Notes under the pieces: generated by a model
What the model was told of the DNA's origin: nothing
The model's input: the letters and a program-made list of their open reading frames with translations, nothing else
Databases searched by the model: none
Source: Candidatus Saccharibacteria bacterium CPR2
GTDB lineage: Bacteria; Patescibacteriota; Saccharimonadia; Saccharimonadales; QWHN01
DNA: 64,000 nucleotides
Assembly: GCA_021404905.1 (NCBI GenBank)
Contig: QWHN01000005.1
Span: forward strand, 16,102-80,101
Direction: 5' to 3'
Made by a program: the position numbers and the translations under genes
Part shown: piece by piece, positions 35,316-62,716 of the stretch
How the letters are laid out: each line of letters begins with the position of its first letter
Position numbering within the stretch: the stretch's first letter is position 1

Positions 35316-36186
35316 CCCTTTGTTAAAACAGAAACGCTTTTCTGAATATGACTATTCAAAAGTAGTTAATAAGCACGACAAATCTTTTAAGTCATCTCGT
35401 CCAGAAAATAACATTGCTCGCCATAAAAGGAAACCGGTCTTTGGTTTTATAACGCGTTCTTTATTGCTGATAATATTTTTATTTGTAATTTATATGGCAA
35501 CCACAGTAAAAAATATTGATATTGCAATAATAGAAGAAGGGCCTAACAATACTGCCAGCGTAAAAAACGATTCTGGCCAACAGATGTCTGACTATCTTGG
35601 TTGGTTTGAAAAACGGCTTAATTCTAAAATTTGGGGCAAAAACATACTTTTTATGAACGAAGCCGAGATGTTAGAGGATTTTACCGCTGATAACTTATTA
35701 GTTAAAAGCGCTTCATTTGGCTTTAATTATGCAAGTGGCAGTCTCAAAGTAAATGTTCAACCAAGAGAACCAATGGCAAGATATTCCACTAGCGATAAAA
35801 TCCTGATTCTAGATAATGAAGGATTTGCATTCTCAGATAATGCCAATAATTATAACAACTTGCCATTAATAAAAGATGAAGCTCAATTTGGAGGAATACT
35901 TGGCAAACAAGCAATCGATACTAATACGGCTTTGTATATAAACCAATTTAGCAGTTTATCTAGTGAGCGTTCTTTAAATGTTGAATACTTTGTCATACCT
36001 CAAGCAATACGTGAGGTGTATATTAAATTTTCAAGCAATAAATACATAATAAAAACTCACATGGACATGGGGCCGGAAGCTTCTCTTAATGCCTATGAGA
36101 AGGCACTAGGCTATGTTGCTTCATCCGGGATTAATGTTAGTGAATATATTGACCTAAGAGTAGAAGGAAAAGCAATATATAAATAA
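35293..36186 (+). CDS. FtsQ/DivIB-like cell division protein (putative)
   Basis: 297 aa. Basic cytoplasmic N-terminus, one TM (LLLIIFLFVIYMATT), then an extracytoplasmic domain. Call is based on position after murG and topology, not on a recognised motif. Confidence 0.5.
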   Translation: MKIQRPRNPLLKQKRFSEYDYSKVVNKHDKSFKSSRPENNIARHKRKPVFGFITRSLLLIIFLFVIYMATTVKNIDIAIIEEGPNNTASVKNDSGQQMSDYLGWFEKRLNSKIWGKNILFMNEAEMLEDFTADNLLVKSASFGFNYASGSLKVNVQPREPMARYSTSDKILILDNEGFAFSDNANNYNNLPLIKDEAQFGGILGKQAIDTNTALYINQFSSLSSERSLNVEYFVIPQAIREVYIKFSSNKYIIKTHMDMGPEASLNAYEKALGYVASSGINVSEYIDLRVEGKAIYK

Positions 36187-36867
36187 GAAGAACAGGCAGT
36201 GGGGCAGTGCAATTTAAGAGCTTGGCATTTAGTGGGCTTGTTAATATTTATTTAAAAAATGCACACTGTATGTTTATTTATAAGACTAATAAAAATTTGT
36301 GAGAAATCTAACAATCCTGCTCTCTTCCAAAGTTCGCATTTTGTTCTCTCTGAATGTTTGGATACTGAATAAACTATATAAATACATAATAAAATATCTA
36401 TGTCAAATTGTAAGAGAATAGTGAAGTGGGGTAATAATCAACGTGCCATGTCAAATGCAAAAAATGCAACAACTGTGGATAAACCATAGGCACTTTATGT
36501 ATTTAGACAATGTGCACTCAATACCAATGCAATAAATAAAAATATATTTAATTAGTGGCAACGAAAGCTTAAAATAGTAAATTTTATGTTGGTATATCAG
36601 TCTAGCCCCCTACTACAAAGGTATGAGACTTCATAAACAGGACGCATATAACAAGACGTAAAATATACATTGTGCGACATGCTGTCGATGTGTATTTATA
36701 CCCTCTACAGTCCATATTGTCTGGTTAAATTTACTTATGAATTTTGTATTTTTAATAATTTTTATACCGCTACTTTCTTTTTGTTGGTCTAAAAGATTTT
36801 TATGTTGCTGGTATTTCTTATTAATTATTTACAACAGCCTATAATTAAAAGTACGAGAAATGTACGA

Positions 36868-39342
36868 TTAACGTAATTTTATTTCTGTTTCTTGGATTAT
36901 TGTGCCACTTTTCTTTATTTGAGTTGTATTCTCGCGTATTTTATTATTTTTGTGAGGGTTTCTGTGTTGGTCCGCTTTTCTTTTAGGTATTGACGAAGAA
37001 TCCCCTACTTTATTGTGTGTACTGAGTGTTGTGCGCTTAATGTGTTCTTCCACCTCGCTGCGAGATCTTGCAAACTTTTTTCTGGAATGCTCAATAATAT
37101 TCTGGCTATGGTCTATTTGGGGGGACGGTATGTCTAAAGTAGTAGCTGAGAAGGCAGGAGTTTTTTCCCCGCTAATAGATAGCGCTGCTACAAGATGTCG
37201 ATTGTGAAGCTGGATCAAGTCTTGAGCGTCAAATTGAGGCTCAAAGTATTTTTGCAGTATTGTCGCATCATCTGCTCCGACCCTAAAGGACACCAGGGAA
37301 CCGACATTGCCAAATACGGCATCTCTAACAATTGGGGTCATCTGAGCAACGTATTGATTAGCTATGGTTAGGTTTAGCCCATACTTCCTAGCTTCAGAAA
37401 GGATCACCGCAAATGAATCAGTCGCAAAATTTTGGAACTCATCGACATATAAATAAAAAGGTCTTCTTTCTTCTAGTCTTGCTATGTTTGCCCGGCTCAT
37501 TGCGGCGAGTTGGATCTTTGTTACCATGAGTGCACCTAAAATAGCTGCGTTATCCTCGCCTACAAGTCCTCTTGAGAGGTTTACAATTAAAATTTTACCC
37601 TCATCCATAATTTTTCTAATATTGAAGCTGGATTTTGATTGACCAACAATATTTCTAATCATGGGGTTGGCTGTAAATGCTCCAACTTTATTTAATACCG
37701 GAGCTACAGCTTCAGCGGCAAATTTATCGTTCCAACTAGCAAATTCTGTAACCCAGAAATTGCGTACAACGGGATCATCTATAGTTCTAATAACCTTTGC
37801 GCGGAAATCTTTTTCCGTAAGCATTCTGGTTATGTCAAGCATTGTGGTGTTAGGATGATCCAGCAGGGCTAAAATAGTGTATCGCAAAATGTATTCCAAT
37901 CTTGGCCCCCAAGATTCGAACATTCGTTTTAAAACACCAACTAACTCTGAAGAAATGTGGTTCTTGAGTGATTCATCAGTTATTTCAAGCGGATTAAATC
38001 CTATAGGATAAGCCGTATCTGCCGGGTTGAAATATAAAACGTCGTTAATTCTATGTGCCGGGATATATTTGAGAATATCGGTCGCGTAATCTCCATGAGG
38101 ATCAATGACGGCAAACCCCTGATTATGAAATACGTCAGATAGTGTTAGGAGTTCGAGCAACCCGGACTTACCTACTCCAGTTTGCCCAATAATGTACAAA
38201 TGCCTGCCTCTGTCGTTCCTCCTTAGACCAAATTGCGCATTTGACCCCCTAAAATTGGTAACTCCAAACGGAGATATCTCCTCATCAGATGCACCACTTA
38301 AAATCGGAAGGGTTGCCGGCGGTTCCGCAGTCTTGCTTGTTGCCCATATAATATTCGGTGTTTCAACTGATGTGTGCGGTAAGTGATAAAGACTGGCTAG
38401 CTCTTCAATATTTAGTATCCTGCCGTCGTTTAAGAAAAATCTTGCCTGATATTCACTAAGTTTGTTCGGAGAAAATGATCTGGATTTCTCAACAATACGA
38501 TTTAAGTTGGTTGAGTTAAACTGCTTAAAACTTCCAATCATGGCCTGCATACGAAGTTTAGCGGTACGTTCGTCATTACCCAAGTAAACAATCCGTATTT
38601 TAACTTGGTAACCTAATTTTGTAGTTTTTTCTTGAACTGCTTGGATTCTACTCCTGTCTCTTTCTGAAAGTTCAGGCGCAGCGGATTTTGCCGAAGCTTC
38701 AGTGGGTGCTCGCCAAAGAGCCAGCAGCCCGTGTGTTAGGGCTCCAACAAAATTGCTGGAACCGTTACCCAAAAATCCCCCGCCATTTTTAATTAAGTTT
38801 ATAAATCTTTGTCCCTTTTTATGCCAACTATCATCAACTGGTCGGGCTAGTATTTGTATCCATAGTTCTTCGTCCTCTTGTTCTAATTTTGCCAGGGTGG
38901 CGGTAATTCCCGCCAACGGGTCCACTTCAAAGTTTGGGAAAGTTTTTATAGGCAAAACCTCATTATCTCCTAGAGTGAGTTCTGTGGTATAAGCTACTGA
39001 TTGGTTGATGTTTCTTGCCGCGTAGTCATCTTTTATTTCATATATTTGTACAGTCGGGTATTGAGCGTATATTTGGCCTTCAACAAAGTTTTGTAAATGT
39101 TGAGGCGTCCAGACATAAAAGTGGATTCTGTGTCCAATTGAAACTATCTCGAAAGAAATATGCTCCTGCAAGGTCCCTTCTTGGATTAATTCTCGCTTTG
39201 GCCTTAAAATTCCATGCAGCGCTGCAAACATTTGTTCCGCAGCTAACTCTTTTTTATCATTGGTACGGGGTACCTCAAGCATGAGTAAGGTGTAATCCGT
39301 TTCTTTTATATGCCGGCTGCGCCGACTGTTTTGCCAGGTCAT
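36868..39342 (-). CDS. Soluble TraD/VirD4/TraG-like (type IV coupling protein-like) P-loop ATPase with a large N-terminal domain of unknown function
   Basis: 824 aa. Walker A IIGQTGVGKSG and Walker B FYLYVDEFQNF, with C-terminal region similarity to FtsK/HerA-clade T4CP ATPases. No N-terminal hydrophobic helices. Confidence 0.65.
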   Translation of the reverse strand: MTWQNSRRSRHIKETDYTLLMLEVPRTNDKKELAAEQMFAALHGILRPKRELIQEGTLQEHISFEIVSIGHRIHFYVWTPQHLQNFVEGQIYAQYPTVQIYEIKDDYAARNINQSVAYTTELTLGDNEVLPIKTFPNFEVDPLAGITATLAKLEQEDEELWIQILARPVDDSWHKKGQRFINLIKNGGGFLGNGSSNFVGALTHGLLALWRAPTEASAKSAAPELSERDRSRIQAVQEKTTKLGYQVKIRIVYLGNDERTAKLRMQAMIGSFKQFNSTNLNRIVEKSRSFSPNKLSEYQARFFLNDGRILNIEELASLYHLPHTSVETPNIIWATSKTAEPPATLPILSGASDEEISPFGVTNFRGSNAQFGLRRNDRGRHLYIIGQTGVGKSGLLELLTLSDVFHNQGFAVIDPHGDYATDILKYIPAHRINDVLYFNPADTAYPIGFNPLEITDESLKNHISSELVGVLKRMFESWGPRLEYILRYTILALLDHPNTTMLDITRMLTEKDFRAKVIRTIDDPVVRNFWVTEFASWNDKFAAEAVAPVLNKVGAFTANPMIRNIVGQSKSSFNIRKIMDEGKILIVNLSRGLVGEDNAAILGALMVTKIQLAAMSRANIARLEERRPFYLYVDEFQNFATDSFAVILSEARKYGLNLTIANQYVAQMTPIVRDAVFGNVGSLVSFRVGADDATILQKYFEPQFDAQDLIQLHNRHLVAALSISGEKTPAFSATTLDIPSPQIDHSQNIIEHSRKKFARSRSEVEEHIKRTTLSTHNKVGDSSSIPKRKADQHRNPHKNNKIRENTTQIKKSGTIIQETEIKLR

Positions 39343-44455: not shown

Positions 44456-45019
44456 TTAGACTGTAATTTTTGCTTCTAAAGGAAAATCGTTGTTGATAAA
44501 ATTCCCTATAAGTTTATAGCTTGCCGAAATGACTTTGTGTAAATTTTCTTCCTCGGCTTTCGTAAATCGGGAGAGCACGAAATCACTGCTCTCGCGTTTT
44601 TCTGTCTCGGCATTTCGGATGCCAACTCTGATTCTGTAAAAATCATCTCCTATCGTACTGATTATAGACTCAATACCATTATGGCCTGCGCTTCCTCCCG
44701 AAAATTTGGTCTTAACAATACCAAATGGAATATCCAATTCATCATGTATCACTAGGACATTTTTATTTTCTATTTTGAAAAATTGTTTCACGGCAAGCAC
44801 CGATTCCCCGCTGAGATTCATAAAAGTCATTGGTTTTATGAAAATTATTTTCTCGTTATTTACATTTTGCTCAGTGTAAGCGGCCTTTAGTTTTGGTTTC
44901 TCCTTGAATTCATCCAGAGAATTTTGCTTGGCAAAATAATCGATAGCCATAAACCCGGTGTTGTGGCGAGTATGTTCGTATTCTTTGCCAGGATTTCCGA
45001 GACCGACAATAAGCTTCAC
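44456..45019 (-). CDS. pth: Peptidyl-tRNA hydrolase
   Basis: 187 aa. MKLIVGLGNPGKEYEHTRHNTGF and GHNG motifs. Confidence 0.9.
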   Translation of the reverse strand: MKLIVGLGNPGKEYEHTRHNTGFMAIDYFAKQNSLDEFKEKPKLKAAYTEQNVNNEKIIFIKPMTFMNLSGESVLAVKQFFKIENKNVLVIHDELDIPFGIVKTKFSGGSAGHNGIESIISTIGDDFYRIRVGIRNAETEKRESSDFVLSRFTKAEEENLHKVISASYKLIGNFINNDFPLEAKITV

Positions 45020-46326
45020 TGTTTATCTCCTTCTCTAAAAGAAAACATTACCGGCGTGCCTTCATAACCAAATTCTTCCCGAAAAGTTCGCTCTAAATAT
45101 CTTTTATATGACCAATGAAGCAGTTTTAAATTTGACCCATAAATTACAAACCATGGCGGATTTGTGTCGGTTTGTACTGCATATCGCAACTTTGGGTAAG
45201 TATTTTTTAACCCTGCGGGCGGATGTTTGGATACTGCCGAAGACAACCATTTGTTCAGCTTAACTGTTTTTACTTTTTGAGCTCGGGTTTTAACGATATC
45301 CAGCGCAACATCATAGAGTGAAGTGACATTTTGACCAGTTACCGAACTTGTAAAAACAAGCGATGCCCAAGGTACAAAATCGAATTCGTATTTTATTTGT
45401 TTTGCCATTTCATCTCTAGTAAAAGCGTCCTTCTCTACTAGATCCCATTTGCTGATGACGAGCGCCAAACCCCTGCCCGATTCTTTTACCATGCCGGCGA
45501 TTTTTTGATCCAGGTGAGTGCCGAGTTCGACCGCATCGATTAAAAGTAGACAAACATCCGATGATTCTATAGCTTCTAGCGTACGAATTACGCTAAAATG
45601 CTCTACTCCTCTATCAATTTTGCTGCTTCTTCTAATACCGGCTGTGTCGCGCAGACGTATGTTTTGTCCATGATAACGTACCGTAGCTTCATTTACATCT
45701 CTAGTTGTGCCAGAAATGCTCGATACAATAGCCTGCTGTTTTTTCGCAAGCGTATTGAAAAGGAATGATTTCCCTACATTTGGCCTGCCCACAAGAGATA
45801 TGGTTATTACATCTTCTTTTTTGGGAATATGCTTCGGAATAACTTCTATCAATGAATTAAGCACATCTTCTATGCCTTTGTTGTGCAAGGCCGAAACCGG
45901 CACTATATTCTTGATGCCAAATTTTACCAAGTGATCCAGACTACTGCCACCCAGTTTATCAATTTTATTGGCTATTAAAATGACCGGCTTTTTAGTTTTT
46001 AGGGCGCTTCTTGAAATTGCGCGATCTTCTTCATTCATACCAGAGGTAGCTTCAACAACCACCAAAATAACGTCTGCCGATGATTCGGCTTGGGCAATTT
46101 GTTCTTGGATTGTTGCCTCAAACTCATCTTCAGGCTCTTTAAGGCCAGCGGTGTCAACAACCCAAAATTCGTGGTTTTCCCAGCTGGTTTTGCGGTATAT
46201 GGCATCTCTTGTGGTACCGGGTTCTTTTGCAACAATGGCATCACGCCGGGCAACGAAACGATTAAATAGACTCGACTTGCCAACATTTGCCCGCCCCACA
46301 ATAGCCACAATTGGTAATTTGCTCAT
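45016..46326 (-). CDS. der: Ribosome-associated GTPase Der (EngA)
   Basis: 436 aa with tandem GTPase domains (GRANVGKSSLFN / DTAG; GRPNVGKSFLFN / DTAG) and a KH-like C-terminus. Confidence 0.9.
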   Translation of the reverse strand: MSKLPIVAIVGRANVGKSSLFNRFVARRDAIVAKEPGTTRDAIYRKTSWENHEFWVVDTAGLKEPEDEFEATIQEQIAQAESSADVILVVVEATSGMNEEDRAISRSALKTKKPVILIANKIDKLGGSSLDHLVKFGIKNIVPVSALHNKGIEDVLNSLIEVIPKHIPKKEDVITISLVGRPNVGKSFLFNTLAKKQQAIVSSISGTTRDVNEATVRYHGQNIRLRDTAGIRRSSKIDRGVEHFSVIRTLEAIESSDVCLLLIDAVELGTHLDQKIAGMVKESGRGLALVISKWDLVEKDAFTRDEMAKQIKYEFDFVPWASLVFTSSVTGQNVTSLYDVALDIVKTRAQKVKTVKLNKWLSSAVSKHPPAGLKNTYPKLRYAVQTDTNPPWFVIYGSNLKLLHWSYKRYLERTFREEFGYEGTPVMFSFREGDKQ

Positions 46327-46342
46327 GAGAACAGTATAGCGT

Positions 46343-46444
46343 ACAGAAATTAGAAAACAGCAATTAGGAAACAGAAAATAGTATATTTTTAAAAACTAAT
46401 TCCTATTTTCTAATTGCCAATTCCTATTTCCCAATTGCTATCTC
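46343..46444. repeat. Heptamer-array palindromic element (copy A)
   Basis: Left arm acagaaa ttagaaa acagcaa ttaggaa acagaaa. AT-rich centre containing the 32-nt core (46373-46404). Right arm ctaattc ctatttt ctaattg ccaattc ctatttc ccaattg ctatctc. The last three units lie inside the 3' end of the pseudouridine synthase CDS. Confidence 0.8.
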
Positions 46445-47110
46445 TCTGTGCTCTCCGCTTTCCAGGCCATTTATCTTATATGGTCCGAATTGGATGCGAT
46501 GCAACTTAACAACCTCATATCCCAGGGCAGAAAAAGTTCTTCTAATTTGACGATTGCGGCCTTCGCGCATGTATACGAGAAATTTGGTGTTTTTGATTTT
46601 TTCGCTAAAATTTTTTGACGCTTTAAGTTTAAATCTGCTCAAACCATCTCCAATTTCCACACCATCTTCGATTTCATCTTTGTGTGTTGTGGACAGTGGT
46701 TTATCAAGCTCAACTTCATACACTTTTTCTTTTGCGAATTTTGGGTGTGTTAATTGGTACGCTAAATCTCCATCATCAGTAAGAAGTATCAAGCCGGTAG
46801 AATTTTTGTCGAGTCTTCCAACGGTTTTTAGTCTTTTATACTTATCTGGCAGAAGTTTATAGACTGTAGGAGTGTCTCCTTGGGTGTTTCTACTGCAAAC
46901 ATAACCTTCTGGCTTGTTGAACAATAAATATGTGTGTTTCTTTAGGGGTTTGACAGTTCCCCCGTCGACTTCTACTGGTTGATTAATATTTACTTGCGCC
47001 CCAAGTTTGACAACATTTCCATCAATAATAACCCTGCCTTTTTCAATCAGATTATCTGCTTCGCGTCTGGATATTCCTAGTGAATTTGCTAAAAATTTGT
47101 TTAATCTCAT
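46424..47110 (-). CDS. Pseudouridine synthase, RsuA/RluB family, with N-terminal S4 domain
   Basis: 228 aa. S4 domain MRLNKFLANSLGISRREADNLIEKGRV. Catalytic motif GRLDKNSTGLILLTDDG. Confidence 0.85.
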   Translation of the reverse strand: MRLNKFLANSLGISRREADNLIEKGRVIIDGNVVKLGAQVNINQPVEVDGGTVKPLKKHTYLLFNKPEGYVCSRNTQGDTPTVYKLLPDKYKRLKTVGRLDKNSTGLILLTDDGDLAYQLTHPKFAKEKVYEVELDKPLSTTHKDEIEDGVEIGDGLSRFKLKASKNFSEKIKNTKFLVYMREGRNRQIRRTFSALGYEVVKLHRIQFGPYKINGLESGEHREIAIGK

Positions 47111-51044: not shown

Positions 51045-51192
51045 GAAATAGCAAATAGCAATTGGGAAATAGAGATTGGAAACTAGAAACTAGCAATTAG
51101 AAAATAGAAATTAGGAATAAGTAGAAAGAGCGCATCGTTTTTCAAATCCTATTTTCCAGTTCCCAGTTCCCAATTCCTAATTTCTATTCTCT
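51045..51192. repeat. Heptamer-array palindromic element (copy C)
   Basis: Left arm of 12 phased units (caaatag caattgg gaaatag agattgg aaactag aaactag caattag aaaatag aaattag gaataag ...). A 15-nt centre. Right arm aaatcct attttcc agttccc agttccc aattcct aatttct attctct. Fills the HK-stop to RR-start spacer. Confidence 0.8.
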
Positions 51193-52717
51193 ACTTGCGG
51201 TACATCGCATGGTTTTTAATCCAGCCATGCGAGCTGCGGACTATACCCTTTTCTGGTTGTTCCAGTTTATTGGCTACCGAAGCAAACGTCGGTACTAAAA
51301 ATCCAAAAGTTGAGCCCTCCCCTTCCTTAGAACTCACATATATTTGGCCGCCATGCGCATCAATAATGGCTTTTGATAAATACAGCCCAAGACCAGTGCC
51401 GCCTACGGCTCCTTTGGTACGGTGAGACCGGTAAAATTTCTTGAATAAATTACCAATTACGGATGATGGAATACCAATGCCACGATCTTGAACAATTACC
51501 TCTACCTGGTCGCCTCGTTGTCTTAGCTCAACGACAATTTCGCCGCCTTCATAACTGTATTTGATCGCGTTGTCTACTAAATTATTTAGCACCTCGGTAA
51601 TTCCTACTTTGTCTATGGCTACGGTGGGCAGATTTTGCGGACTTTTTAAGATAATCTTACGATTTAGGGCAGTTGCTCTTAAGCCAATTTCGTCTACAGT
51701 TTCTTTGGTAGTTGAGATAATATCTTCTTCCTTAATAAAAAGCTTTAACTCGTTTTGGTCCACACGGGACACATTTAATATGTTGTTGACATAAGTAGCC
51801 AGTTGATTAGCCGAGAGGACTACCTTGGAAAGAAGCCCTTTTTGTTCATCATTAGCTACACTATTCAGCTCATCGCTAAGCACATCTAGATACCCGCGTA
51901 TCACTGTAATCGGACCTCTGAGCTCATGTGCTGCCAAAGCAACAAAGCTAAGCTGATTTTCATCTTCACTATATGAACCGGTTTTATCTGTGAATACCAA
52001 AACGACTTCTTGATTCAGACTGTCATTTTTACTGTAATGCGCTACTAAATCTATATAACGCACCTGATTTTTTGAGCTTAACTTTACACGGTTCCAAATG
52101 CGTTTGTCGTGCACCTTATTTTGTCTGGAAGATTCGAGCCAACTTTTATAATCACCTTCACCCTGAAAATCCAAATTCACTATTCTTTCAAAAGGCACCC
52201 CAATTGATTCGGATTGCTCGCTGCCGATAAATTCAAGAGCTTCTTTATTAGCAAAAGCCAGACTTTGGTTGTTATCAAGAATCATTACTGCAACTGGCAG
52301 TTTGTTAAGGATAGACTCAATATATCTGGCATTGCTATTACTTGTTTGCGATTCAGCTTCCTTGCTTTTGACAAGTTTATAAATATTATCAGTAAGTTTT
52401 TCTATTAATTCACGGCCAAGCAACGTGCCCTTGATTGTTAGTGTCTGCGCGCTTTCTTCGGGCGCCAGGATATTGGCTATAACTTTAGTCAGAACATCTA
52501 TTGGTTCGATGATAAAGGTTTGTAAAAAATAGACCAGGATTGAACCAACAAATGTTGAAACGCCAAAAGCTATGATTGAGGTGATTTCTATTGAAATGTC
52601 GAAATATATATTTAGTAATAACCACGTTAATGTCCCTGATGCAGCCACAATTCCGTACGACAAGAACATCACCCATGAGATGTGTGCTCTAAGTTGGCGA
52701 ATTAAATCTTTCTGCAT
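51191..52717 (-). CDS. Membrane sensor histidine kinase (2 TM + PAS-like + HisKA + HATPase)
   Basis: 508 aa. H-box LAAHELRGPIT, N-box LVDNAIKY, and G-boxes DRGIGI / GTGLGL. Confidence 0.85.
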   Translation of the reverse strand: MQKDLIRQLRAHISWVMFLSYGIVAASGTLTWLLLNIYFDISIEITSIIAFGVSTFVGSILVYFLQTFIIEPIDVLTKVIANILAPEESAQTLTIKGTLLGRELIEKLTDNIYKLVKSKEAESQTSNSNARYIESILNKLPVAVMILDNNQSLAFANKEALEFIGSEQSESIGVPFERIVNLDFQGEGDYKSWLESSRQNKVHDKRIWNRVKLSSKNQVRYIDLVAHYSKNDSLNQEVVLVFTDKTGSYSEDENQLSFVALAAHELRGPITVIRGYLDVLSDELNSVANDEQKGLLSKVVLSANQLATYVNNILNVSRVDQNELKLFIKEEDIISTTKETVDEIGLRATALNRKIILKSPQNLPTVAIDKVGITEVLNNLVDNAIKYSYEGGEIVVELRQRGDQVEVIVQDRGIGIPSSVIGNLFKKFYRSHRTKGAVGGTGLGLYLSKAIIDAHGGQIYVSSKEGEGSTFGFLVPTFASVANKLEQPEKGIVRSSHGWIKNHAMYRK

Positions 52718-53781
52718 TAGTTATATGTAACTGACTTCTCTGGCGGAAGTGCTACAACCCAGGCTTGACCGGCATTGAGAGATATCTCCGCGCCGGCAGC
52801 ATCTAAGAACTTATACTGTTCAAAAGCGCCGGGTTTTTGCCATGTGCCAGTGGTGAGAGTGCCGTCCTGAAAGATAAGTAATTCGCCTGAACCTGCTGTT
52901 GGCATCTTTAAATGTCCATCTGCCATAACACTTTGTGGGATCTTCATGACTATAACAACTTTAGGGTTTATTTGTTTGCCGGACTCTCTGTCCTTATGCG
53001 CATTGCCGGCCAAGCTGCGCAGATAACTGTTCGAAGCCTGGTCGTAAGTATAGCTTGATGCGTAATACTGGCTGGAGATATTAATCGAGATGTTCGAAGC
53101 GTTTGGCGCCGGTGAAGGCGTATCAGCTTTTCGTGTCCAAGGTGTAAATTTGCTTTCCTGAAAACCCAGTTCATTCATTAAAGCATCCAGGAGGTCGCTA
53201 GTCGTATACATATTGTGCGGTGCGTATCTGTCGCTGGCACGATAGAATGATCCGGCGTGAGAGAATTGGTCGAGATCTTTCATGCTGGCGCTACGAGCAT
53301 ACTGCAAAGCTTCCGGACTTCCACCTACGTGTGCAACGGCCGCGTCAAATGTTTTTCCCCACTCCAGAAAATATGGCCTTAATGATCTAACTGGCCCAAA
53401 CAACGCGGGTCTTGCTTCTTGGTAAAGGGCTAAATGGCGCGTGATTCCACCCTCGGCGATTGCTTCAAACACTACCCCGGCTTCTTGAAGGCCAGATTGC
53501 GGCCTGGCGTCAGGACTATTTTCGATTACAATCCCTTTAACGGGGCGTTTTGCTAAGTCGGGAGACACTTCAACTCCCGTCAGGGGAGATTTTTCCAGTT
53601 TTATAGTAGGCTCGCTAGTGCTGGTCGCATTTGGGTCTGTGCGGCTGACTTCTTTACTGTTTTTTAACCATATAGCGGTAATTAAAATACCCAAAAAAAC
53701 TACCAGGATGGTGCTCGATACTAACAAAACTTTTTTGTTTTTCTTGGCCCAGTCAAAAAAACGGGCTAAGCGTTTTTTCAT
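52717..53781 (-). CDS. DUF3048-family secreted/anchored protein (YerB-like)
   Basis: 354 aa. N-terminal TM, then VIENSPDARPQSGLQEAGVVFEAIAEGGITRHLALY, which resembles the DUF3048 signature. Assignment is from memory. Confidence 0.6.
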   Translation of the reverse strand: MKKRLARFFDWAKKNKKVLLVSSTILVVFLGILITAIWLKNSKEVSRTDPNATSTSEPTIKLEKSPLTGVEVSPDLAKRPVKGIVIENSPDARPQSGLQEAGVVFEAIAEGGITRHLALYQEARPALFGPVRSLRPYFLEWGKTFDAAVAHVGGSPEALQYARSASMKDLDQFSHAGSFYRASDRYAPHNMYTTSDLLDALMNELGFQESKFTPWTRKADTPSPAPNASNISINISSQYYASSYTYDQASNSYLRSLAGNAHKDRESGKQINPKVVIVMKIPQSVMADGHLKMPTAGSGELLIFQDGTLTTGTWQKPGAFEQYKFLDAAGAEISLNAGQAWVVALPPEKSVTYN

Positions 53782-53832
53782 ACATATGAGTATCTCGAAT
53801 TAACCCGTTTTTATCAAGAGGCTTACGGTTGT

Positions 53833-54045
53833 ATAACTTTTAACTATTTCCCAATTCCTAGTTTTCATTTGCCATTTACCAATTACCAATCATTGTCTCA
53901 ATAAAGCATTTATCATTGATAAAAATATCTCATTAGTTAACTGACTAAATGAATGGCAACTGGTAAATGATAAGTGGTAAGTCTTTATACGAGCTTGATA
54001 GCTTTTAACTAATTCCTAGTTGCTGATTCCCAATTGCTAATCGCT
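53833..54045. repeat. Heptamer-array palindromic element (copy D, variant word set)
   Basis: Left arm ctatttc ccaattc ctagttt tcatttg ccattta ccaatta ccaatca. Right arm gaatggc aactggt aaatgat aagtggt. A 21-nt module gagcttgatagcttttaacta follows, then aattcct agttgct gattccc aattgct aatcgct, which lies inside the gltX 3' end. Confidence 0.75.
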
Positions 54046-55511
54046 ATATTCAGGCGCCTTATGGTCGTTTCTTTACCTAAAACGGCCAGGGTCTCAGCTA
54101 GAGGAGGGCTAAAGGGTGCCCAAGTGGTAGCGATTCGAACGAGGCTAAATAAAACACCCGGTTTTTGAGAAGTTTGTTGCAATAAATTATTTAAGCTATC
54201 AGTTAGACCCGCAATGCTAAAGTCACTTTGTTCCAAAGCGTCAATGGTTTGTTTCAACAGGGCTTTTATCTCGTCCATAGAAAATCGGCTAAGCTGTTTA
54301 TTATTTTTGATAAGTTCCAAATCTATGGGCTGATCCTCAAAAAAGAACTTAGTCAATTGGGGAAGTTCGTCAAAATGCTTTAGTCGTTCTTGAACCAGCT
54401 TTAAAACCTGGGTTTTATAGGCGTTGTCAAATTTGCCTGCTGCTTCCGGCCAAAACTTGGCACCGGTTTCTAATCCCTGATTTTTAATTGTCTCGAAAAG
54501 TTGCTCGATACTTTTAGAACGAATGTGGTGCCCGTTTAGCCAACTAAGTTTTTCCGGCTCGAACCTGGCGGGAGATTTTTGGATTCTCTCTATAGAAAAT
54601 GCATTTAAGATTTCATCAATGCTATAAACTTCCTGATTTGTGCCGTCATTCCAACCGAGTGATGACAGGAAATTAAACACGGCTTCCTTTAGGTAACCTT
54701 GGTCACGATATTCCAACACCGACATTGCCCCTTCGCGCTTTGATAACTTTTTCCCGCCGTTCTTCCCAAGTACTGGCGGTAGTGTGATAAATTTTGGCGG
54801 TTGCCAGCCAAGGGCGTCATAAACCGATAAAAATTTTGGCATTGAAGATATAAACTCCTCGCCTCTTATAACATGAGTGATTTTCATTTCGTAGTCGTCC
54901 ACAATGTGAGCGAAGTTGTAAGTCGGAAAACCGTCAGCTTTGATTAGGATAAAATCATCCAATGCCTCCGGGCCGGCAGAAAGCTTGCCCCGGACTTCAT
55001 CCTGCCATGAGTAAGGTTTAACCTCAGGGACTTTAAGGCGCAATGGTTTTGTCTCGTCCCATTCAATACTTTTATCTGAAAATTCAGGGCGATAATCCCT
55101 AAATAAAAAAGGCTTGTTGCTATTTTTTGATTGCCCCCGAAACTCTTCTAACTGTTCTTGGGTGTATGGATCAGGATAAGCATGCCCGGCTTCAAGTAAT
55201 TGTCTGGCATATTTTTTATATATGTCTAGTCTTTGAGATTGAAAATATGGGCTATTTTCACCGCCGACATCCGGACCTTCATGCCATTCAAGCCCAAGCC
55301 ACTTCAGCGACTCTTTAATTTGCTCAACCGCGCCTTTAACCTCGCGTTTTTTATCTGTGTCTTCGATTCTTAAAATAAAATCGCCATTATTTTGCTTGGC
55401 TATAATCCAGGCAAAGAGCGCTGTTCTAATCGCGCCGACATGAAGCATGCCGGTAGGACTGGGCGCAAAACGGGTTCGGACACTCATTACCAACATAGTA
55501 TCTTCTAACAT
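54009..55511 (-). CDS. gltX: Glutamate--tRNA ligase
   Basis: About 490-500 aa. HIGH-type motif PSPTGMLHVG and KMSKS-type KLSKR. The start may be the Met of MSVRTRFAPSP (55487). Confidence 0.9.
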   Translation of the reverse strand: MLEDTMLVMSVRTRFAPSPTGMLHVGAIRTALFAWIIAKQNNGDFILRIEDTDKKREVKGAVEQIKESLKWLGLEWHEGPDVGGENSPYFQSQRLDIYKKYARQLLEAGHAYPDPYTQEQLEEFRGQSKNSNKPFLFRDYRPEFSDKSIEWDETKPLRLKVPEVKPYSWQDEVRGKLSAGPEALDDFILIKADGFPTYNFAHIVDDYEMKITHVIRGEEFISSMPKFLSVYDALGWQPPKFITLPPVLGKNGGKKLSKREGAMSVLEYRDQGYLKEAVFNFLSSLGWNDGTNQEVYSIDEILNAFSIERIQKSPARFEPEKLSWLNGHHIRSKSIEQLFETIKNQGLETGAKFWPEAAGKFDNAYKTQVLKLVQERLKHFDELPQLTKFFFEDQPIDLELIKNNKQLSRFSMDEIKALLKQTIDALEQSDFSIAGLTDSLNNLLQQTSQKPGVLFSLVRIATTWAPFSPPLAETLAVLGKETTIRRLNIAISNWESATRN

Positions 55512-55556
55512 GAATTGCTATTCAAGTTAAATTTGATTACAATACTTGATCAGAGA

Positions 55557-56288
55557 ATGTCTATGCCTCCAAAAATTGTTTACCCTCAAAAAGATAATAA
55601 TACCGACCATCCAACCCCTAATGAAATATATGACAACGCGAATAGAAACAGTCCTCAAGATTATTCTGAGATTACTGAACCGGGTAAGATTACCAAATTT
55701 TTGACAAAATCTATTTTTGTGAAATTGTATTATTTCAATTTTTTTGGACTTTTGTTCTGGGTTTTATTATTAATCTTTACACTTATTCTTACAGTCATAA
55801 TTAATTCCACTCAAACTCTTACGGAAAATGCAATTAATGCAATTCATGGTTTGCTATGGGGAGGTCAATTTTTTTGGTTAGCTCTGGAGCTTTCATTAAT
55901 GCTATCCGGGGTATTAATATTTAAAAACAATATTAAATTATTACAATCAAATCGAAAATGTGTACCTAAAGTGGTTAAATTTGTTGGTGCGCTTTGGGGG
56001 CTTACACTTTTGGTCGGGATATTTATTACTGGGCATGTATTGTTCTCGAATACAGATTTTATTAATTCTGTATTAGCACTGGGTATCGTGTCTGTAGTAT
56101 TTTTTATGTTTTGGCTTTATGCCGTAAATGTGCTAATTAACCGCATACTTAAGCGAATAGACAGTCAGCGCCCTTTTAATTTAATAACAACAATGCTTAC
56201 ACTAATTTTTGAAACTTTAATAATATTTTTTGGTTATATAATTATTACCATCACCGCTACAATTGTGGATCCACCTGATTCAGGCTAA
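55557..56288 (+). CDS. Hypothetical polytopic membrane protein
   Basis: The ATG at 55557 gives MSMPPKIVYPQ. About 6 hydrophobic helices. No motif recognised. Confidence 0.5.
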   Translation: MSMPPKIVYPQKDNNTDHPTPNEIYDNANRNSPQDYSEITEPGKITKFLTKSIFVKLYYFNFFGLLFWVLLLIFTLILTVIINSTQTLTENAINAIHGLLWGGQFFWLALELSLMLSGVLIFKNNIKLLQSNRKCVPKVVKFVGALWGLTLLVGIFITGHVLFSNTDFINSVLALGIVSVVFFMFWLYAVNVLINRILKRIDSQRPFNLITTMLTLIFETLIIFFGYIIITITATIVDPPDSG

Positions 56289-56304
56289 AAAATCCAACAT
56301 TACT

Positions 56305-57150
56305 ATGAGTGCAATTTCAATCACATCGAGATATGCAAAAATCAATTCACTTGTAAAAATGACCCGACCGCAAAACATGCGATTCACAGTAGCCGTCTAT
56401 ATAGTAAGCGGAGCGGTTTTTGGTTTATCTACAATAGCTATAATCCTTGGTTCGTTAATTTATTTTCTGCTTTATGGTTTGGCCACCATTATTAATAACA
56501 TAAGAGATGTTGAAGTCGATAAGCTAAATAAAACGAACAATCCCTTAGCAAAAGGCAATGTAAGCATACAAGAGGTAAAAGTTCTTTTTTCAATTTACCT
56601 TTTGGGTTTAATTATCATCCAGTTACTTCTTCCACAACCTGAAACATTGATATTTGCGCTTACTTTACTGTTTTTTAGTTTAATATATTCTTGGAAAGTA
56701 ACAGATATTCAATCAAGGGGTTTGATTGCGACGATATTACTCTCGCTTATGTATTCAGGTTCTCCCGTATTATTAGCAGGTATATATTCTGGGTATTTTC
56801 CTCTATTTCAAGCATGTGTCTTGGGTCTTCTAACCACTGCCGGTCTACTCGCTAAGGATTATAAAGACATAAAAGGTGATAAGTTGCATGGCAAGCTTAC
56901 CCCATTGGTTCGATATGGTGAAAAAACAGTTAGAACAATTGCTTATACCGTAGGAATAATAGCTTTAATTTTTGTATTTTACTCAAATTCTATGAATTTA
57001 GCAGTATATATTACTTTATCCACTTTTTATTTAAGTAGTGCCTACTGGCTACATAAAAATAAAGCGCATAATAATCTAATTAAGATATTGCATCAGACAT
57101 CTGTGGTATTTTTGGTAGTTTTTTATCTTCAAGGTGAATTTTTAAAATAA
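56305..57150 (+). CDS. UbiA-family prenyltransferase
   Basis: The ATG at 56305 gives MSAISITSRY. Polytopic, with first Asp-rich motif NNIRDVEVD (NxxxDxxxD) and second KDYKDIKGD. Confidence 0.75.
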   Translation: MSAISITSRYAKINSLVKMTRPQNMRFTVAVYIVSGAVFGLSTIAIILGSLIYFLLYGLATIINNIRDVEVDKLNKTNNPLAKGNVSIQEVKVLFSIYLLGLIIIQLLLPQPETLIFALTLLFFSLIYSWKVTDIQSRGLIATILLSLMYSGSPVLLAGIYSGYFPLFQACVLGLLTTAGLLAKDYKDIKGDKLHGKLTPLVRYGEKTVRTIAYTVGIIALIFVFYSNSMNLAVYITLSTFYLSSAYWLHKNKAHNNLIKILHQTSVVFLVVFYLQGEFLK

Positions 57151-58351: not shown

Positions 58352-59362
58352 TTATAGCCCCAGCAAACTACGTTTATATTCATCCAGATGGCTCAAGGCG
58401 TAGTATGTTCCTTTGGCGTTGCAAAGCAAAGGGTCTTGGGCCATAAAGCACGGTGTGTTTAGTTTTCTGGACAAATATTCTTCAATGCCATTGAGCTGCG
58501 CCACTCCTCCGCTGAGTACAATACCTTGACCGACAATGTCGCTGACTACATCAGGCGGGGTTCTTTCAATCGCGTTGCGCACAGCAAGAATTATTCTGTC
58601 AAAGACGCCTTCAAGGTGTGGCCTTAAATCTCTACCTTTAACATCGACGCTTTTTGGCAACGAGTCAGACAAATTACGGCCGCGAACTGTCATTTTTTGG
58701 TCATCAAATTCATCGTGAACCGCGCCAATCTTTAGTTTGGTTTCTTCGGCTGTATTCAAACCTATATGCATATTATGGGTCCGTCGAAAATATCTGGTTA
58801 TTGCCTCGTCCATTGCTTTGCCGCCAACCCTCACAGCCTCTTTGGTGACTATTCCTCCTAAAGACAGGACTGCTATTTCAGTCGTACCACTGCCTATATC
58901 GACAATCATATGGCCCTTTGGCTCAATAACGGGAATAGATGCGCCTAAAGCTGCCGCTACCGGTGAATAGATTAGAAATACGTTTTGGATTCCTGCTTCA
59001 TGTCCAACGTCTAGAACAGCCCGCTGCTCCGTAGAAGTTGCACTAACAGAGACGGTGATCATGGCTTCAGGCTTCTGAATATGAAAGCGCCCAATAGCCT
59101 TTTGCACAAAATTTCGAAGCATTTGTTCGGCTGCGCCAAAATCCGCGATGACACCGTTTTGCAAAGGATAATATGCCTCAAGTTGCTCCGGTGTGCGTCC
59201 CAGCATGTCTATCGCGTCAAGCCCAACGGCAACAATTTTGTCATTCTCAGTATTTTTGGCCACAACGCTAGGTTCATCAACAATTATCCCTTTACGAGGT
59301 ATGTAAATTCGAGTTCTGGATGTTCCCAGATCTATACCAATTTTTTTACTGAAGATTGCCAT
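58352..59362 (-). CDS. mreB: Rod shape-determining actin homologue MreB
   Basis: 336 aa. IGIDLGTSRT, VDIGSGTTEIAV and LSGGVAQLNG actin-fold motifs. Confidence 0.9.
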   Translation of the reverse strand: MAIFSKKIGIDLGTSRTRIYIPRKGIIVDEPSVVAKNTENDKIVAVGLDAIDMLGRTPEQLEAYYPLQNGVIADFGAAEQMLRNFVQKAIGRFHIQKPEAMITVSVSATSTEQRAVLDVGHEAGIQNVFLIYSPVAAALGASIPVIEPKGHMIVDIGSGTTEIAVLSLGGIVTKEAVRVGGKAMDEAITRYFRRTHNMHIGLNTAEETKLKIGAVHDEFDDQKMTVRGRNLSDSLPKSVDVKGRDLRPHLEGVFDRIILAVRNAIERTPPDVVSDIVGQGIVLSGGVAQLNGIEEYLSRKLNTPCFMAQDPLLCNAKGTYYALSHLDEYKRSLLGL

Positions 59363-59402: not shown

Positions 59403-59705
59403 GAATTGGGAAATGGGAACTAGCAATTGGGAATTAGGAACTAGAAACTGGAAATTAGAAAATAGTATATTTTTAAAAAACTAATTCCTAGTTTCTAACT
59501 CCTAATTCCTATTTTTAACTTTATGAACTTGATAACTTTTAACTAGATTCCAGATTCCAGATTCCAGATTCCAGATTCCAGCTTCTAGATTCTAGCTTCT
59601 ATTTCCCAATTCCCAATTTCTATTTCCTAATTGCTGTTTCCTAATTTCTATACTCTATACGTCATACTGCATACTTCATACTCTATTTCCTAATTCCCGT
59701 TTCAT
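59403..59705. repeat. Heptamer-array element (copy E): hairpin part plus a 23-unit one-sided array including (AGATTCC)x5
   Basis: Nine purine-arm units at 59403-59465 (gaattgg gaaatgg gaactag caattgg gaattag gaactag aaactgg aaattag aaaatag). Core at 59457-59489. Five pyrimidine-arm units at 59481-59515. Module gaacttgataacttttaacta at 59525-59545. 23 phased heptamers at 59545-59705. Confidence 0.85.
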
Positions 59706-61162
59706 TGTTTTTCAACAACAAGATTAACCCTTTGAATTATTGTTTCTGTTGCGCTTGCGGGAGGAGCGACTGTATATATATTTTCAAAATCGTGGTCAAA
59801 GAAAACATCAAACCTTGGGTCGATTGGCACAATCTCCACTAAATTTGCCCCGTCAAATTCAAAGATCAACAGCTTGTTTGATTGGTCTTGGAGCATCAAT
59901 CGGTGCCCATCCATCCACTCGGCAAGTACGTTTTCCGCTAAAGGACGGTCAACTGCGAATTGGTAAGTTTTGTCATACTCGATGTCATAAACCGTAAACT
60001 TAGACCCATTTTGCAAACTAACAAACTGAGAATTATTAGAAAATGATGCCATTTGCGGTTTCTCGCTCGAAATAGTTCTAAACGGCTTTGGCTTTTCGCC
60101 TTCCTTGGTATCAAATGGGTTTTTGTAGATATAAGTCATATTAGTTGGAGAGTCTGTGATCGCCAGATATTCGTCACCGTCATATTTTTCCATTCTCATA
60201 AAATATTTTTCATTAGGGGCAACATCTCTTATCTCCATGGTTTTACCGTCTTTTAGAATACTAGCCCGAATCGTACCACTGTCTTTGAGTTCATGAATCA
60301 ATAAAACGGCTTTGTCTCCATAAACTCTGTAATACAGAACATGCTCCATTAGGGAGCTGGATATGGTTTTTTTATCAAGGTCAATGAGCCTTAGAGATTT
60401 ATCAACGAGGGCATATAATTGATTATTCGAACCTCCCAGAAACTGGATGTTATCAAGGGGCAAGCCAAACTCACGGGAAATGTTGCGGCTTGTCTCGGGT
60501 TTGGTGCGATCAAATACGATAAATTCGTTAATATCCCCGTTTTTATGGTTTAGCAAAATAACTTTATTATCCTGTGCCCATTCGATAATTTTTAGGTCGC
60601 CCAGCTTGCCGTCTTTTTTAGTAAACACTTCTTCGGGCAAGACAACGTTTTTTATAGGTCTTTCGATTTTATCTACTTCAATTTGATCATAAATTGGTTT
60701 ATCGGAAGAATTACGCACCAAGAGCCAAAATTTATCTAAACTTTGGCTGGCATCATTTACTTTTGGATATGTAAATTGCGTGGCAGCAAGAATCTGCTCT
60801 GGGAATAACTTTGGATAGTACACCCACATCACTTCTTCACCCTTTAATTCGACATTTTTTGACCAGGAACGGTAACCATCTCGCTTTAATTCGAGTTTGT
60901 ATTCGCCGGCCGGCAGGGCCAGTTTCCCTGGGGTCGTGTCGTTCTCGGCTTTATCGTTAATAAAAATCTGCGCTGGTTTTGGTCCCGCATCAACAAGTAT
61001 TAATCCGTTTTGTATCAATGTGCCGGTATTCCTATCAATATCGTAGCCTTTAGCGGCAAACACGATAAAAATGGTTGCGATAGCTGCTAACGCACCGCCG
61101 AGCGCATATAATAGTAAACGAATGGTTGAGCGCACTCTTTCAGATTGAAAGTCTATAAACAT
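59702..61162 (-). CDS. PEGA-domain membrane-anchored protein
   Basis: 486 aa. N-terminal TM and a PEGA-type beta-sandwich (PKPAQIFINDKAENDTTPGKLALPAGEYKLELKRDGYRSWSKNVEL). The long C-terminal region is not assigned. Confidence 0.6.
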   Translation of the reverse strand: MFIDFQSERVRSTIRLLLYALGGALAAIATIFIVFAAKGYDIDRNTGTLIQNGLILVDAGPKPAQIFINDKAENDTTPGKLALPAGEYKLELKRDGYRSWSKNVELKGEEVMWVYYPKLFPEQILAATQFTYPKVNDASQSLDKFWLLVRNSSDKPIYDQIEVDKIERPIKNVVLPEEVFTKKDGKLGDLKIIEWAQDNKVILLNHKNGDINEFIVFDRTKPETSRNISREFGLPLDNIQFLGGSNNQLYALVDKSLRLIDLDKKTISSSLMEHVLYYRVYGDKAVLLIHELKDSGTIRASILKDGKTMEIRDVAPNEKYFMRMEKYDGDEYLAITDSPTNMTYIYKNPFDTKEGEKPKPFRTISSEKPQMASFSNNSQFVSLQNGSKFTVYDIEYDKTYQFAVDRPLAENVLAEWMDGHRLMLQDQSNKLLIFEFDGANLVEIVPIDPRFDVFFDHDFENIYTVAPPASATETIIQRVNLVVEKQ

Positions 61163-61207
61163 ATGAAAATAATAAAATTGTTACGCATATAGTATAGCTG
61201 ATAGATA

Positions 61208-61346
61208 CTGGGAAATGGTAATTAGCAATTAGCAATTAGGAACTAGGAATTAGTTTTTAAAAATATACTATTTTCTATTTCCTAATTGCTGTTTCCTAAT
61301 TTCTATACTCTATTTCCCAATTCCAAATTGCTAGTTCCTATTTCCC
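61208..61346. repeat. Heptamer-array palindromic element (copy F)
   Basis: Purine arm actggga aatggta attagca attagca attagga actagga. Core at 61245-61276 is the exact reverse complement of 46373-46404. Pyrimidine arm has 11 units (ctatttt ctatttc ctaattg ctgtttc ctaattt ctatact ctatttc ccaattc caaattg ctagttc ctatttc). Confidence 0.85.
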
Positions 61347-61360
61347 GGAAGCTGGGCTTC

Positions 61361-62425
61361 CTAAAAGATTCCATCCCAAATTCGTTGCCATAAACTTGGT
61401 GCGCTGCCTGGAACTTGGGAATCAATTTCTTTGGGCAGTTGTGTTTCTGTTGCGGTTGCGCTTAGCGGATCGGGTACGATTTGCTCTGCTTGAACAACCA
61501 GTCTTCTCCAGCTTGTACCGGGAGGCGTGCATGTAATTAGCGATGTGATAGGCCTGTCGGCAGTTTGAATTAAGGAAAAATCATTTGGAGCAACAATTTG
61601 TTTATTAAATACCTTATAGATGTATCGTTTACTGCCATAATGAATTACAAATGTGTCTCCTACTTCCAGTCTATCAAGTAAAACAAAGGCAAATTTATAC
61701 TTTCCGGAGTTGAAGAAGTTGTTACTTGAATGGCCGACTATGACGTTATTGCCAATTTGGCCGGGGAGCGCGCTTTCTCCGTAATGGACTACACCGCCCT
61801 CCAAAGCCTTTTGGATTTTACCTTCATCATAAGACTTTTCATCATAAACAACCGGCACATCCACATTTATTTTAGGAATGACAATCTTGGGCGCGCTGCT
61901 AACTGGAATTTCGGCATTTGGATCTAAAATTACAGGAGTGTTGAATTCTTTACCAGGGCTGATGTAGGACTTAACTTGCCCGATAACAATATGATTATAG
62001 TTAAGTGTTAAGAAGATAAAACCCACTACTCCGGCAATTAGTAAAGGTTTACCGTGTTTTTTCCTAAACGACTTTGTTTGGGGACCCAGTTTTGAAACAA
62101 TATGTTTTTTTGCTTGGGCAACTGACGTTAGTCTAGTTTTATGGCTTTTATGATGGGTTGGGTGGGCATAACCAACTTGTTTTGAATGCAATCCTTCATG
62201 TTGGCTGGTTGCGGCTTGCGAAGCGCGGTGATAACGTTGCCATTCGGCATGCTTTTGCTCATCAGTTAAGCTATGGTACCATCTCTCGTATGCTGCACGA
62301 TCAACTTTGGGGTCTGGTCTATCATTTGGAAATGCGCCATGGTGTTCTTGAAAATTCGCATCATGATGCCCAGAAGATGGTAAATGGAATTGATTATGTT
62401 TTGAATTCATAAAAAATCTAAGCAA
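61361..62425 (-). CDS. Sortase-family transpeptidase with His-rich N-terminal extension
   Basis: 354 aa. TM helix (LLIAGVVGFIFLTL), catalytic His region NVIVGHSS, catalytic Cys motif LITCTPPG and downstream Arg (RRLVV). 16 His in the first 108 residues. Confidence 0.75.
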   Translation of the reverse strand: MLRFFMNSKHNQFHLPSSGHHDANFQEHHGAFPNDRPDPKVDRAAYERWYHSLTDEQKHAEWQRYHRASQAATSQHEGLHSKQVGYAHPTHHKSHKTRLTSVAQAKKHIVSKLGPQTKSFRKKHGKPLLIAGVVGFIFLTLNYNHIVIGQVKSYISPGKEFNTPVILDPNAEIPVSSAPKIVIPKINVDVPVVYDEKSYDEGKIQKALEGGVVHYGESALPGQIGNNVIVGHSSNNFFNSGKYKFAFVLLDRLEVGDTFVIHYGSKRYIYKVFNKQIVAPNDFSLIQTADRPITSLITCTPPGTSWRRLVVQAEQIVPDPLSATATETQLPKEIDSQVPGSAPSLWQRIWDGIF

Positions 62426-62528: not shown

Positions 62529-62606
62529 GGGCGAGTGGCGGAATTGGCAGACGCGCTGGACTCCCACCTACGTTGCAAAACTACGGTGGGCAGGCAAAAT
62601 CCGTGG
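62529..62606 (+). pseudogene. Degenerate partial copy of tRNA-Leu (5' half) with a 32-nt insert at the anticodon position
   Basis: 29 nt at 62535-62563 are identical to 62634-62662 of the intact tRNA-Leu (D arm to anticodon-loop CTC). A 32-nt insert follows at 62564-62595, then AAAATCC matching the 3' side of the anticodon loop and stem. No T arm or 3' acceptor. Confidence 0.55.
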
Positions 62607-62627: not shown

Positions 62628-62716
62628 GCCGAGGTGGCGGAATTGGCAGACGCGCTGGACTCAAAATCCAGTGAGAGTAAAATCTCGTGTGGGTTCGACT
62701 CCCACTCTCGGCACCA
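62628..62716 (+). tRNA. tRNA-Leu (anticodon CAA), CCA encoded
   Basis: Manual cloverleaf: acceptor GCCGAGG/TCTCGGC, anticodon arm CTGGA-CTCAAAA-TCCAG, long variable arm TGAGAGTAAAATCTCGT, T arm GTGGG-TTCGACT-CCCAC, A + CCA. 89 nt. Confidence 0.9.

Follow-up and report, generated by a model that had tools for sequence, protein, structure and literature searches.

The window, by which we mean the whole 64-kb stretch of DNA that was analysed, is a piece of ordinary core chromosome that carries secA, the dcw cluster, topA, dprA, recO, der, mreB and gltX. The relatives of its GltX protein belong to Candidatus Saccharimonadales, with one sister strain at 99% identity, the nearest non-self sequence at 69% and the remainder at about 60%. 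Together with a HIP1 count of 0 in the window, these relatives rule out a cyanobacterial origin, which had been the first impression from STRR/SDR repeats. Domains of transposases, integrases and invertases or other recombinases were not found among the ORFs of the window, and neither was a RAYT or IS200-like gene. No RHH domain was present in the window ORFs scanned, a set that covers small ORFs incompletely.

The genes next to the elements described here are the following:

45016-46326, minus strand: der
46424-47110, minus strand: rsuA-like pseudouridine synthase gene
58352-59362, minus strand: mreB
59702-61162, minus strand: PEGA-domain gene
61361-62410, minus strand: sortase gene

Gene orientation in the window flips from plus to minus at about 36186-36868, where the genes are convergent, and the first minus-strand gene (36868-39342) encodes an 824-aa HerA/TrwB-like ATPase. 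At the other end a 29-nt exact direct repeat (62535-62563 and 62634-62662) was found; the 5' part of tRNA-Leu(CAA) (62628-62716) is duplicated 99 nt upstream. This repeat could have been left behind by an old integration, or it could be a partial duplication of the tRNA.

Heptad hairpins and the core common to some of them

The initial annotation had reported a 32-mer which recurs exactly in both orientations, and its three positions were borne out:

46373-46404, plus strand: core copy A, 32 nt, A5 variant; occupies the loop and the upper stem of the predicted hairpin A
59457-59489, plus strand: core copy B, 33 nt, A6 variant; found without change in 11 contigs of other strains
61245-61276, minus strand: core copy C, 32 nt, A5 variant; exact on the minus strand and inverted with respect to A and B

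The 32-mer AGAAAATAGTATATTTTTAAAAACTAATTCCT is exact in copies A and C, and copy B has one extra A in the A-run, so that B and C differ by one indel. In 100 dinucleotide-preserving shuffles it had 0 matches, even with 3 mismatches allowed. The coordinates of der, the rsuA-like gene, mreB, the PEGA gene and the sortase gene confirm that the flanking genes all lie on the minus strand and that the core therefore occurs in both orientations relative to transcription. The claim that the core is only quasi-palindromic and has a real orientation also holds. Its centre is a perfect palindrome, TAGTTTTTAAAAACTA, broken by ATA, and this interruption makes the orientation readable. Moreover, hairpins A (46336-46436) and C (61213-61313) are 89% identical over 101 nt when compared as an inverted pair and 70% when compared directly; since the flanks agree better in the inverted comparison, the orientation is real. 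A promoter within the core was considered and not adopted: the sequence TATACT faces the downstream gene in A and B and points away from it in C.

A search in related assemblies, as the initial annotation had proposed, revealed that the 32-mer is not confined to the three sites of the window. Outside of it there are copy P beside a PGI gene, copy Q in strain L022 and a diverged fifth copy D in strain L021 (28/32, inverted relative to B). Aligned with each other, all core-bearing elements have an exact block at the centre and a similarity that decays on both sides. Between A and C the similarity reaches well past the 32 nt, and long exact matches are not peculiar to the core, as a 39-nt module is common to 61274-61313 and 59619-59658.

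Each core copy forms the apex of an intergenic hairpin of 100-150 bp, the arms of which are opposed arrays of a degenerate heptad, T-A/G-G-N-A-A-N. Over 71 units the positions are T1 (92%), A/G2, G3 (100%, 71/71), N4, A5 (92%), A6 (93%) and N7. A scan for period 7 gave 13 runs of at least four units, compared to 0.4 expected in shuffles. All of them are intergenic and are distributed over seven loci between 46 and 62 kb and one locus at 11.3 kb; Tandem Repeats Finder independently reported periods of 7, 14, 21 and 28. All heptad arrays but one lie on the minus-strand side of the window, from 46 to 62 kb. The members and their parts are:

46337-46440, unstranded: hairpin A, the whole rsuA-der spacer, with 7 TAG-type heptads on the left and 7 CTA-type heptads on the right; fold z -6.4 (minus strand) and -5.1 (plus strand)
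59407-59511, unstranded: hairpin B, upstream of mreB, with arms Bl (59407-59456) and Br (59490-59511); from period-7 scan and fold
61195-61346, unstranded: hairpin C, from the sortase stop to the PEGA start, with arms Cl (61195-61244) and Cr (61277-61346); from period-7 scan and fold
59543-59701, unstranded: array X, some 25 heptads in phase that follow the PEGA stop downstream, with (AGATTCC)x6.9 at 59545-59592 and a copy of module M
61274-61313, unstranded: module M, 39-40 nt, in arm Cr; further copies are a direct one at 59619-59658 (39 nt, exact) and, with 91%, an inverted one at 46336-46377
51049-51193, unstranded: family member with a different centre, in the histidine-kinase/response-regulator spacer; the kinase stop is a heptad TAG
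53847-54046, unstranded: heptad arrays and a hairpin module of about 165 nt in the gltX-DUF3048 spacer; module absent from sister strain L006
11267-11327, plus strand: half element at the 3' end of an S41 peptidase gene, with 7 TAG-type heptads and then the cap motif TAGTTAAAAGTCATCAAGT
59527-59545, minus strand: cap motif TAGTTAAAAGTTATCAAGT after array X; also at 53993-54011 (minus), 53828-53846 (minus) and 11309-11327 (plus)

Four times a TAG-type heptad array is closed by the cap motif, TAGTTAAAAGYYATCAAGYT, which in each case has the same sense as the gene upstream. Since TAG recurs every 7 nt, each hairpin closes all three reading frames on both strands. A heptad TAG is the stop codon of four genes, namely those for the S41 peptidase, RsuA (in hairpin A), the histidine kinase and GltX, and the last ten or so codons of gltX are array sequence.

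For hairpins A, B and C stems of 40-50 bp are predicted, with fold z values of -5 to -6.4 on either strand. The arms of one element pair with each other no better than chimeric combinations of arms do, which indicates that the hairpin potential comes from opposed arrays of one heptad and not from co-evolution of the arms. A reciprocal exchange between A and C, considered because of the very stable chimera of A-left and C-right, was dismissed as trivial, since A and C are paralogues in inverted orientation. Arms of the family, compared in pairs, have a best 28-nt identity of 0.71-0.93. The arms of A, B and C fall within this range except for module M, for which X and C_R reach 1.00 and A_L and C_R 0.93. 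The view of A, B and C as one element in three copies thus holds for the common centre; the arms, apart from that one module, are only as similar as those of the family in general, and the picture is rather that of an older resident family.

The earlier statement that independently evolved terminators do not fit agrees with our results. The terminator scan calls none at any hairpin, and the AT-rich stems of 40-50 bp are not followed by a T-run or U-tract. No Rfam family was found at the gathering thresholds, only sub-threshold matches to generic long hairpins. The best of them (59413-59530) is to Wolbachia sRNA 46, with 33 bits against a gathering threshold of 65, and it is probably a generic likeness between AU-rich hairpins. 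A small GC-rich hairpin, GGAAGC-CCA-GCTTCC in minus-strand sense, is located at 61347-61361 directly after the sortase stop and before hairpin C. A -10-like box, GCTATACT, was noted at 46327-46343 (minus strand), at 61170-61200 and at about 1299-1330 of contig L023. The box precedes the ATG by 6-7 nt in the case of der and the PGI gene and by 31 nt in that of PEGA, where it is kept in the sister species (L007). This placement suggests leaderless mRNAs or mRNAs with a very short leader.

Gene orders joined at the core

The orthologous spacers of related strains and species were compared, as had been recommended. The sister species, at about 70-73% nucleotide identity, is represented by contigs L007 and L067 from ERR4450749. 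The sortase and PEGA genes converge in three independent relatives (L007, L018/L019 and L020), whereas they are co-oriented in the window. By blastn, L007 6029-7565 aligns with window positions 59706-61244 on the same strand and the neighbouring genes align on the opposite strand. The homology reaches exactly as far as the edge of core C (61244/61245). The segment concerned is:

59706-61244, unstranded: inverted segment, the PEGA gene with its upstream arm, lying between core C at one end and array X with hairpin B at the other

The PEGA gene is thus flanked by inverted repeats, core B (plus) and core C (minus), and these are the expected ends of an inversion. The orientation of C opposite to B goes along with the inversion of the PEGA gene between them. 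L007 has a single hairpin between its divergent PEGA and mreB genes, and the arms of this hairpin match by position Cl of hairpin C (PEGA side) and Bl of hairpin B (mreB side). Judged from this match, a hairpin of the L007 type appears to be effectively split in the window lineage, each half now being part of a complete core-bearing hairpin. The spacer between sortase and PEGA gene measures 7 nt in L007 and, with hairpin C, 198 nt in the window, a difference that is confounded by the inversion.

The strains also differ in the arms and genes that are joined to the core. Contigs of other samples that encode a 100% identical MreB agree exactly with the window in arm Bl and in the 33-nt core. From the base that follows CTAATTCCT onwards, the window, the contigs L068, L021 and L023-L027, and the contig L022 part into three paralogous arms. 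What follows the core is array X and the PEGA gene in the window, the PGI gene, a divergent phosphoglucose-isomerase-like gene, in L021, L023-L027 and L068, and a gene for a protein of 522 aa in L022. On the sortase side and the rsuA side the contigs of other strains all stop inside repeats.

Sample SRR12262943 contains both a window-type contig (L006) and a PGI contig (L069). Each of them ends 30 nt inside the same 34-nt repeat; L069 starts 30 nt inside the A6 core and runs on into its own arm. The Logan assemblies presumably use k=31, and contig ends of 30 nt within a 34-nt repeat are accounted for by two copies in one genome assembled at this k. The occurrence of both contigs in one sample indicates that, outside the window, the window-type genome has P as a fourth copy. 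An exchange between B and P within the core would then be expected to give the PGI-mreB arrangement. A breakpoint between the window and this second arrangement at the outer edge of hairpin B, where Br and the P arm differ at 3/29 positions, was ruled out, as both arms coexist in the window-type sample.

A ubiA-family gene and a gene for about 241-257 aa (55515-57150, plus strand) lie on the strand opposite to all their neighbours. The pair is absent from L021, L007, L018 and L020; in L021 a heptad hairpin with the diverged core D is found in its place.

Strain-level turnover and distribution

Sequence turnover between close strains was found in the arms. All 8 differences between L013 and the window in 1625 nt fall within 34 nt of arm Cl, the PEGA gene and the core being unchanged. 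L006 has 16 differences to the window in 12.9 kb, 5 of them in the gltX-terminal array. The hairpin module of about 165 nt that is present in the window is absent from L006, although these strains are 99.9% identical. It is flanked by 14-nt direct repeats, TAGTTAAAAGYTAT, which fit a deletion.

Differences between strains were also seen inside genes (53446-53476 and 60596-60611) as short patches with substitutions 3 nt apart, at third positions. These patches suggest that sequence from diverged lineages has frequently been imported by recombination; the window also has dprA and recO. Furthermore, L006 carries an rve-family IS in its gltX-DUF3048 spacer (L006 5478-6505, corresponding to window position ~53822/53823) that is absent from the window. 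It encodes a transposase of 298 aa and has imperfect terminal inverted repeats of about 28 bp and a CCTC duplication. As a parent of the hairpins this IS was ruled out, because its ends, CGGAAAATTCTCAC... and ...GTGAGACTTTGCGG, are unrelated to the arrays and it is an ordinary insertion with a CCTC duplication.

In L007 heptad hairpins are found at three orthologous spacers, PEGA-mreB, DUF4367-gltX and gltX-DUF3048, with centres that are unrelated to the core. A half-core match in L007 (AAAAACTAAACTCTAGTTCC...) is insignificant after the vocabulary of the arms is discounted (E = 2.8). As hairpins with other centres occupy orthologous spacers of the sister species, the hairpin family predates the species, and the centre described here is species-specific. 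A further 15 kb of the sister species (L067) and the relatives with about 59% GltX identity (L018-L020) contain no heptad arrays. The core has no match in the species-representative genomes, the JGI metagenomes or the viral contigs of IMG/VR. A relaxed core pattern gave 28 matches, all of them chance hits in unrelated contexts, and a genome scan guided by MreB found nothing. In a literature search no description of dispersed repeat families in Saccharibacteria or other CPR bacteria was found.

Probable recombination at the core, its alternatives and known repeat systems

We favour, with a probability of roughly 0.6, a resident, non-autonomous and lineage-restricted family of heptad palindromes, one subfamily of which has a centre of 32-34 nt, with copies that recombine at this core. 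The core would be the apex, loop and stem top, of non-coding palindromes in which two opposed heptad arrays surround a non-heptad centre. As the longest perfect identity between copies, the centre would be the place where recombination resolves. A reciprocal crossover between inverted copies would invert the DNA between them, so that C would come to lie inverted to B and the PEGA gene would be flipped. Exchange at the core would likewise place different genes beside the same half-hairpin in sister strains. Gene conversion may homogenise the centre and hold it identical while the arms drift, slip and get patched. We infer homologous recombination of the RecA type as the agent. An identity of 33-34 nt speaks against it, being near the lower limit for efficient RecA-type recombination, and at least three independent exchanges in one species could point to a dedicated enzyme instead. 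The position-specific conservation of the heptad, with its invariant G3, suggests a sequence-specific constraint such as protein binding, for which recombination at the core does not account; the hairpins may also have a role in the cell.

Such a constraint is the starting point of another explanation, according to which the core is a functional cis-element under purifying selection. It could be the dyad centre of operator-like or centromere-like arrays, or an intercistronic RNA hairpin which stabilises, processes or insulates transcripts. The heptad resembles a binding motif (G3 in 71/71 units, positions 4 and 7 variable), the predicted hairpins are very stable, the elements sit between a stop codon and the next promoter-like box, and the core is invariant in all strains sampled while the adjacent arm varies. 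The divergence of these strains is, however, too low for an invariance over 33 nt to signify, as about 0.8 substitutions would be expected even in L021. The core occurs in both orientations relative to transcription, other members have unrelated centres, the two arms of an element do not co-vary, and no U-tract, terminator call or Rfam family is associated with the hairpins. Selection alone would also leave unexplained why different arms and genes are joined at the core, and we regard it as unlikely to be the explanation. Unlikely as well is a non-autonomous element like a MITE, REPIN or ERIC, a hairpin of about 100 nt that is copied by a transposase encoded elsewhere, its identical core then being due to recent transposition. 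The intergenic copies A, B, C, D, P and Q in both orientations, the sortase-PEGA spacer that is longer by a hairpin in the window, the module present or absent between near-identical strains and the restriction of the family to one lineage would all fit. Yet the elements lack defined ends and terminal inverted repeats, and their arms grade into gene ends and supply stops. The target-site duplications that the initial annotation wished to see tabulated were looked for and none flanks A, B or C, the fuzzy boundaries limiting the power of this result. The arms of A, B and C are at the background similarity of the family and full-length near-identical copies were not found; the window has no transposase, and the sole IS, that of L006, has unrelated ends. 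Hairpins at orthologous spacers of the sister species argue for residence and not for fresh insertion, and the direct repeats around the module fit deletion. Of the earlier proposal of copying, mobility or gene conversion, copying or exchange between sites is therefore supported by the additional copies P, Q and D and by the strain-variable joins; mobility of the transposon type is not.

The core could also be the crossover site of a dedicated site-specific recombinase with the heptad arrays as accessory binding sites or scaffolds to which proteins bind. Inversion and shuffling would then be reversible and would include the gene of the PEGA surface protein as programmed variation. If such a system were real, the PEGA gene beside the sortase would be switched, which would mean programmed variation of the surface or the genome in an epibiotic CPR bacterium. 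Inverted cores B and C do lie on either side of one inverted gene, the exchange products, at least three in number, are all joined at the same 33 nt, the core has dyad symmetry with an asymmetric centre, and the breaks that contigs of many samples have at the core would be compatible with mixed orientations. On the other hand, a repeat longer than k-1 accounts for these breaks in full, and among the contigs, which at k=31 break at the core, no sample shows both orientations of one segment. A recombinase or invertase gene is missing from the window, the diverged copy D indicates that the centre is not strictly constrained, and homologous recombination would likewise resolve in the longest identical stretch. 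This makes a dedicated recombinase quite improbable. An assembly artefact, with copies or orientations created by mis-joins at low-complexity sequence, is highly improbable. It is true that short-read assemblies break here and that no independent contig spans core B or C in the window configuration (the Logan contigs break), so that the junctions of the window rest on its own assembly. But each half-junction of gene, arm and core entry is exactly reproduced in many independent samples, the indel between B (A6) and C (A5) keeps the two from being interchanged at k > 33, and the contigs end exactly 30 nt into the repeats, as real repeats would give.

With respect to known systems, the heptad palindromes appear closest in layout and behaviour to ERIC-type palindromes and, more generally, to repeat-mediated inversions. 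ERIC elements are not protein-coding, their central region is conserved, and they can face either way with respect to transcription. The ERIC or IRU sequences of Enterobacteriaceae are imperfect palindromes of 127 bp (PMC6066780). The hairpins share with them the imperfect palindrome of about 100-130 bp, the intergenic position, probable transcription and the occurrence in either orientation, which supports a similar way of working and not membership. They differ by being in another phylum, by heptad arms that vary freely so that only an apex of about 32 nt is common, and by their tie to rearrangement junctions. Given the taxonomic distance, homology to ERIC is unlikely. In repeat-mediated inversions between IS, rrn or REP copies, too, inverted copies flip a segment and lead to strain-specific gene orders; the usual substrates are far longer, whereas the identity here is only 33-34 nt within homeologous arms of about 80-85%.

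The family resembles REP sequences and REPINs in that its members are short, lineage-specific repeats in extragenic DNA which form hairpins and are non-autonomous (PMC3116915). REPINs have two conserved inverted REP ends around a variable spacer and are found near a RAYT gene (PMC3116915). The layout here is the opposite, an exact centre with variable arms, and the window has no RAYT or IS200-like gene. With invertons and the Hin, Gin and shufflon systems the locus has in common that inverted cores B and C flank a PEGA segment which is inverted relative to three relatives; in contrast to them, no invertase, integrase or transposase domain is encoded in the 64-kb window. The STRR and SDR sequences of cyanobacteria comprise tandem intergenic units of 7 nt and dispersed sequences of 21-27 nt in repeat or hairpin contexts. 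The likeness to the tandem 7-nt intergenic units is one of form only. The units there are different (e.g. CCCCAGT), HIP1 is 0 here, the host belongs to Saccharimonadales, and the arrays form opposed palindrome arms around the dispersed sequence. The omega repressor of pSM19035 binds contiguous 7-bp units, direct and inverted, upstream of promoters. Contiguous direct and inverted 7-bp units are also found here, a likeness to omega operators and parS in layout only: the unit is WATCACW there and TAGNAAN here, and a cognate ribbon-helix-helix protein was not among the window ORFs scanned, small ORFs being incompletely covered.

The kind of bacterial repeat is already known; notable are the unusual construction, the host lineage and the direct tie to strain-level rearrangement. 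The sharp heptad motif may reflect a binder or process that is sequence-specific. In this lineage such repeats of 30-40 nt interrupt assemblies or may lead to false joins, which should be kept in mind when the assemblies are used. The genomes of Saccharibacteria and other CPR bacteria are small and tightly packed, and here one species has heptad palindromes that overlap the ends of genes and supply their stop codons. Strains that are nearly identical differ in this family, and at least three gene orders have their junctions at its members. If recombination at the core is borne out, these palindromes would be a concrete driver of rearrangement in a reduced genome.
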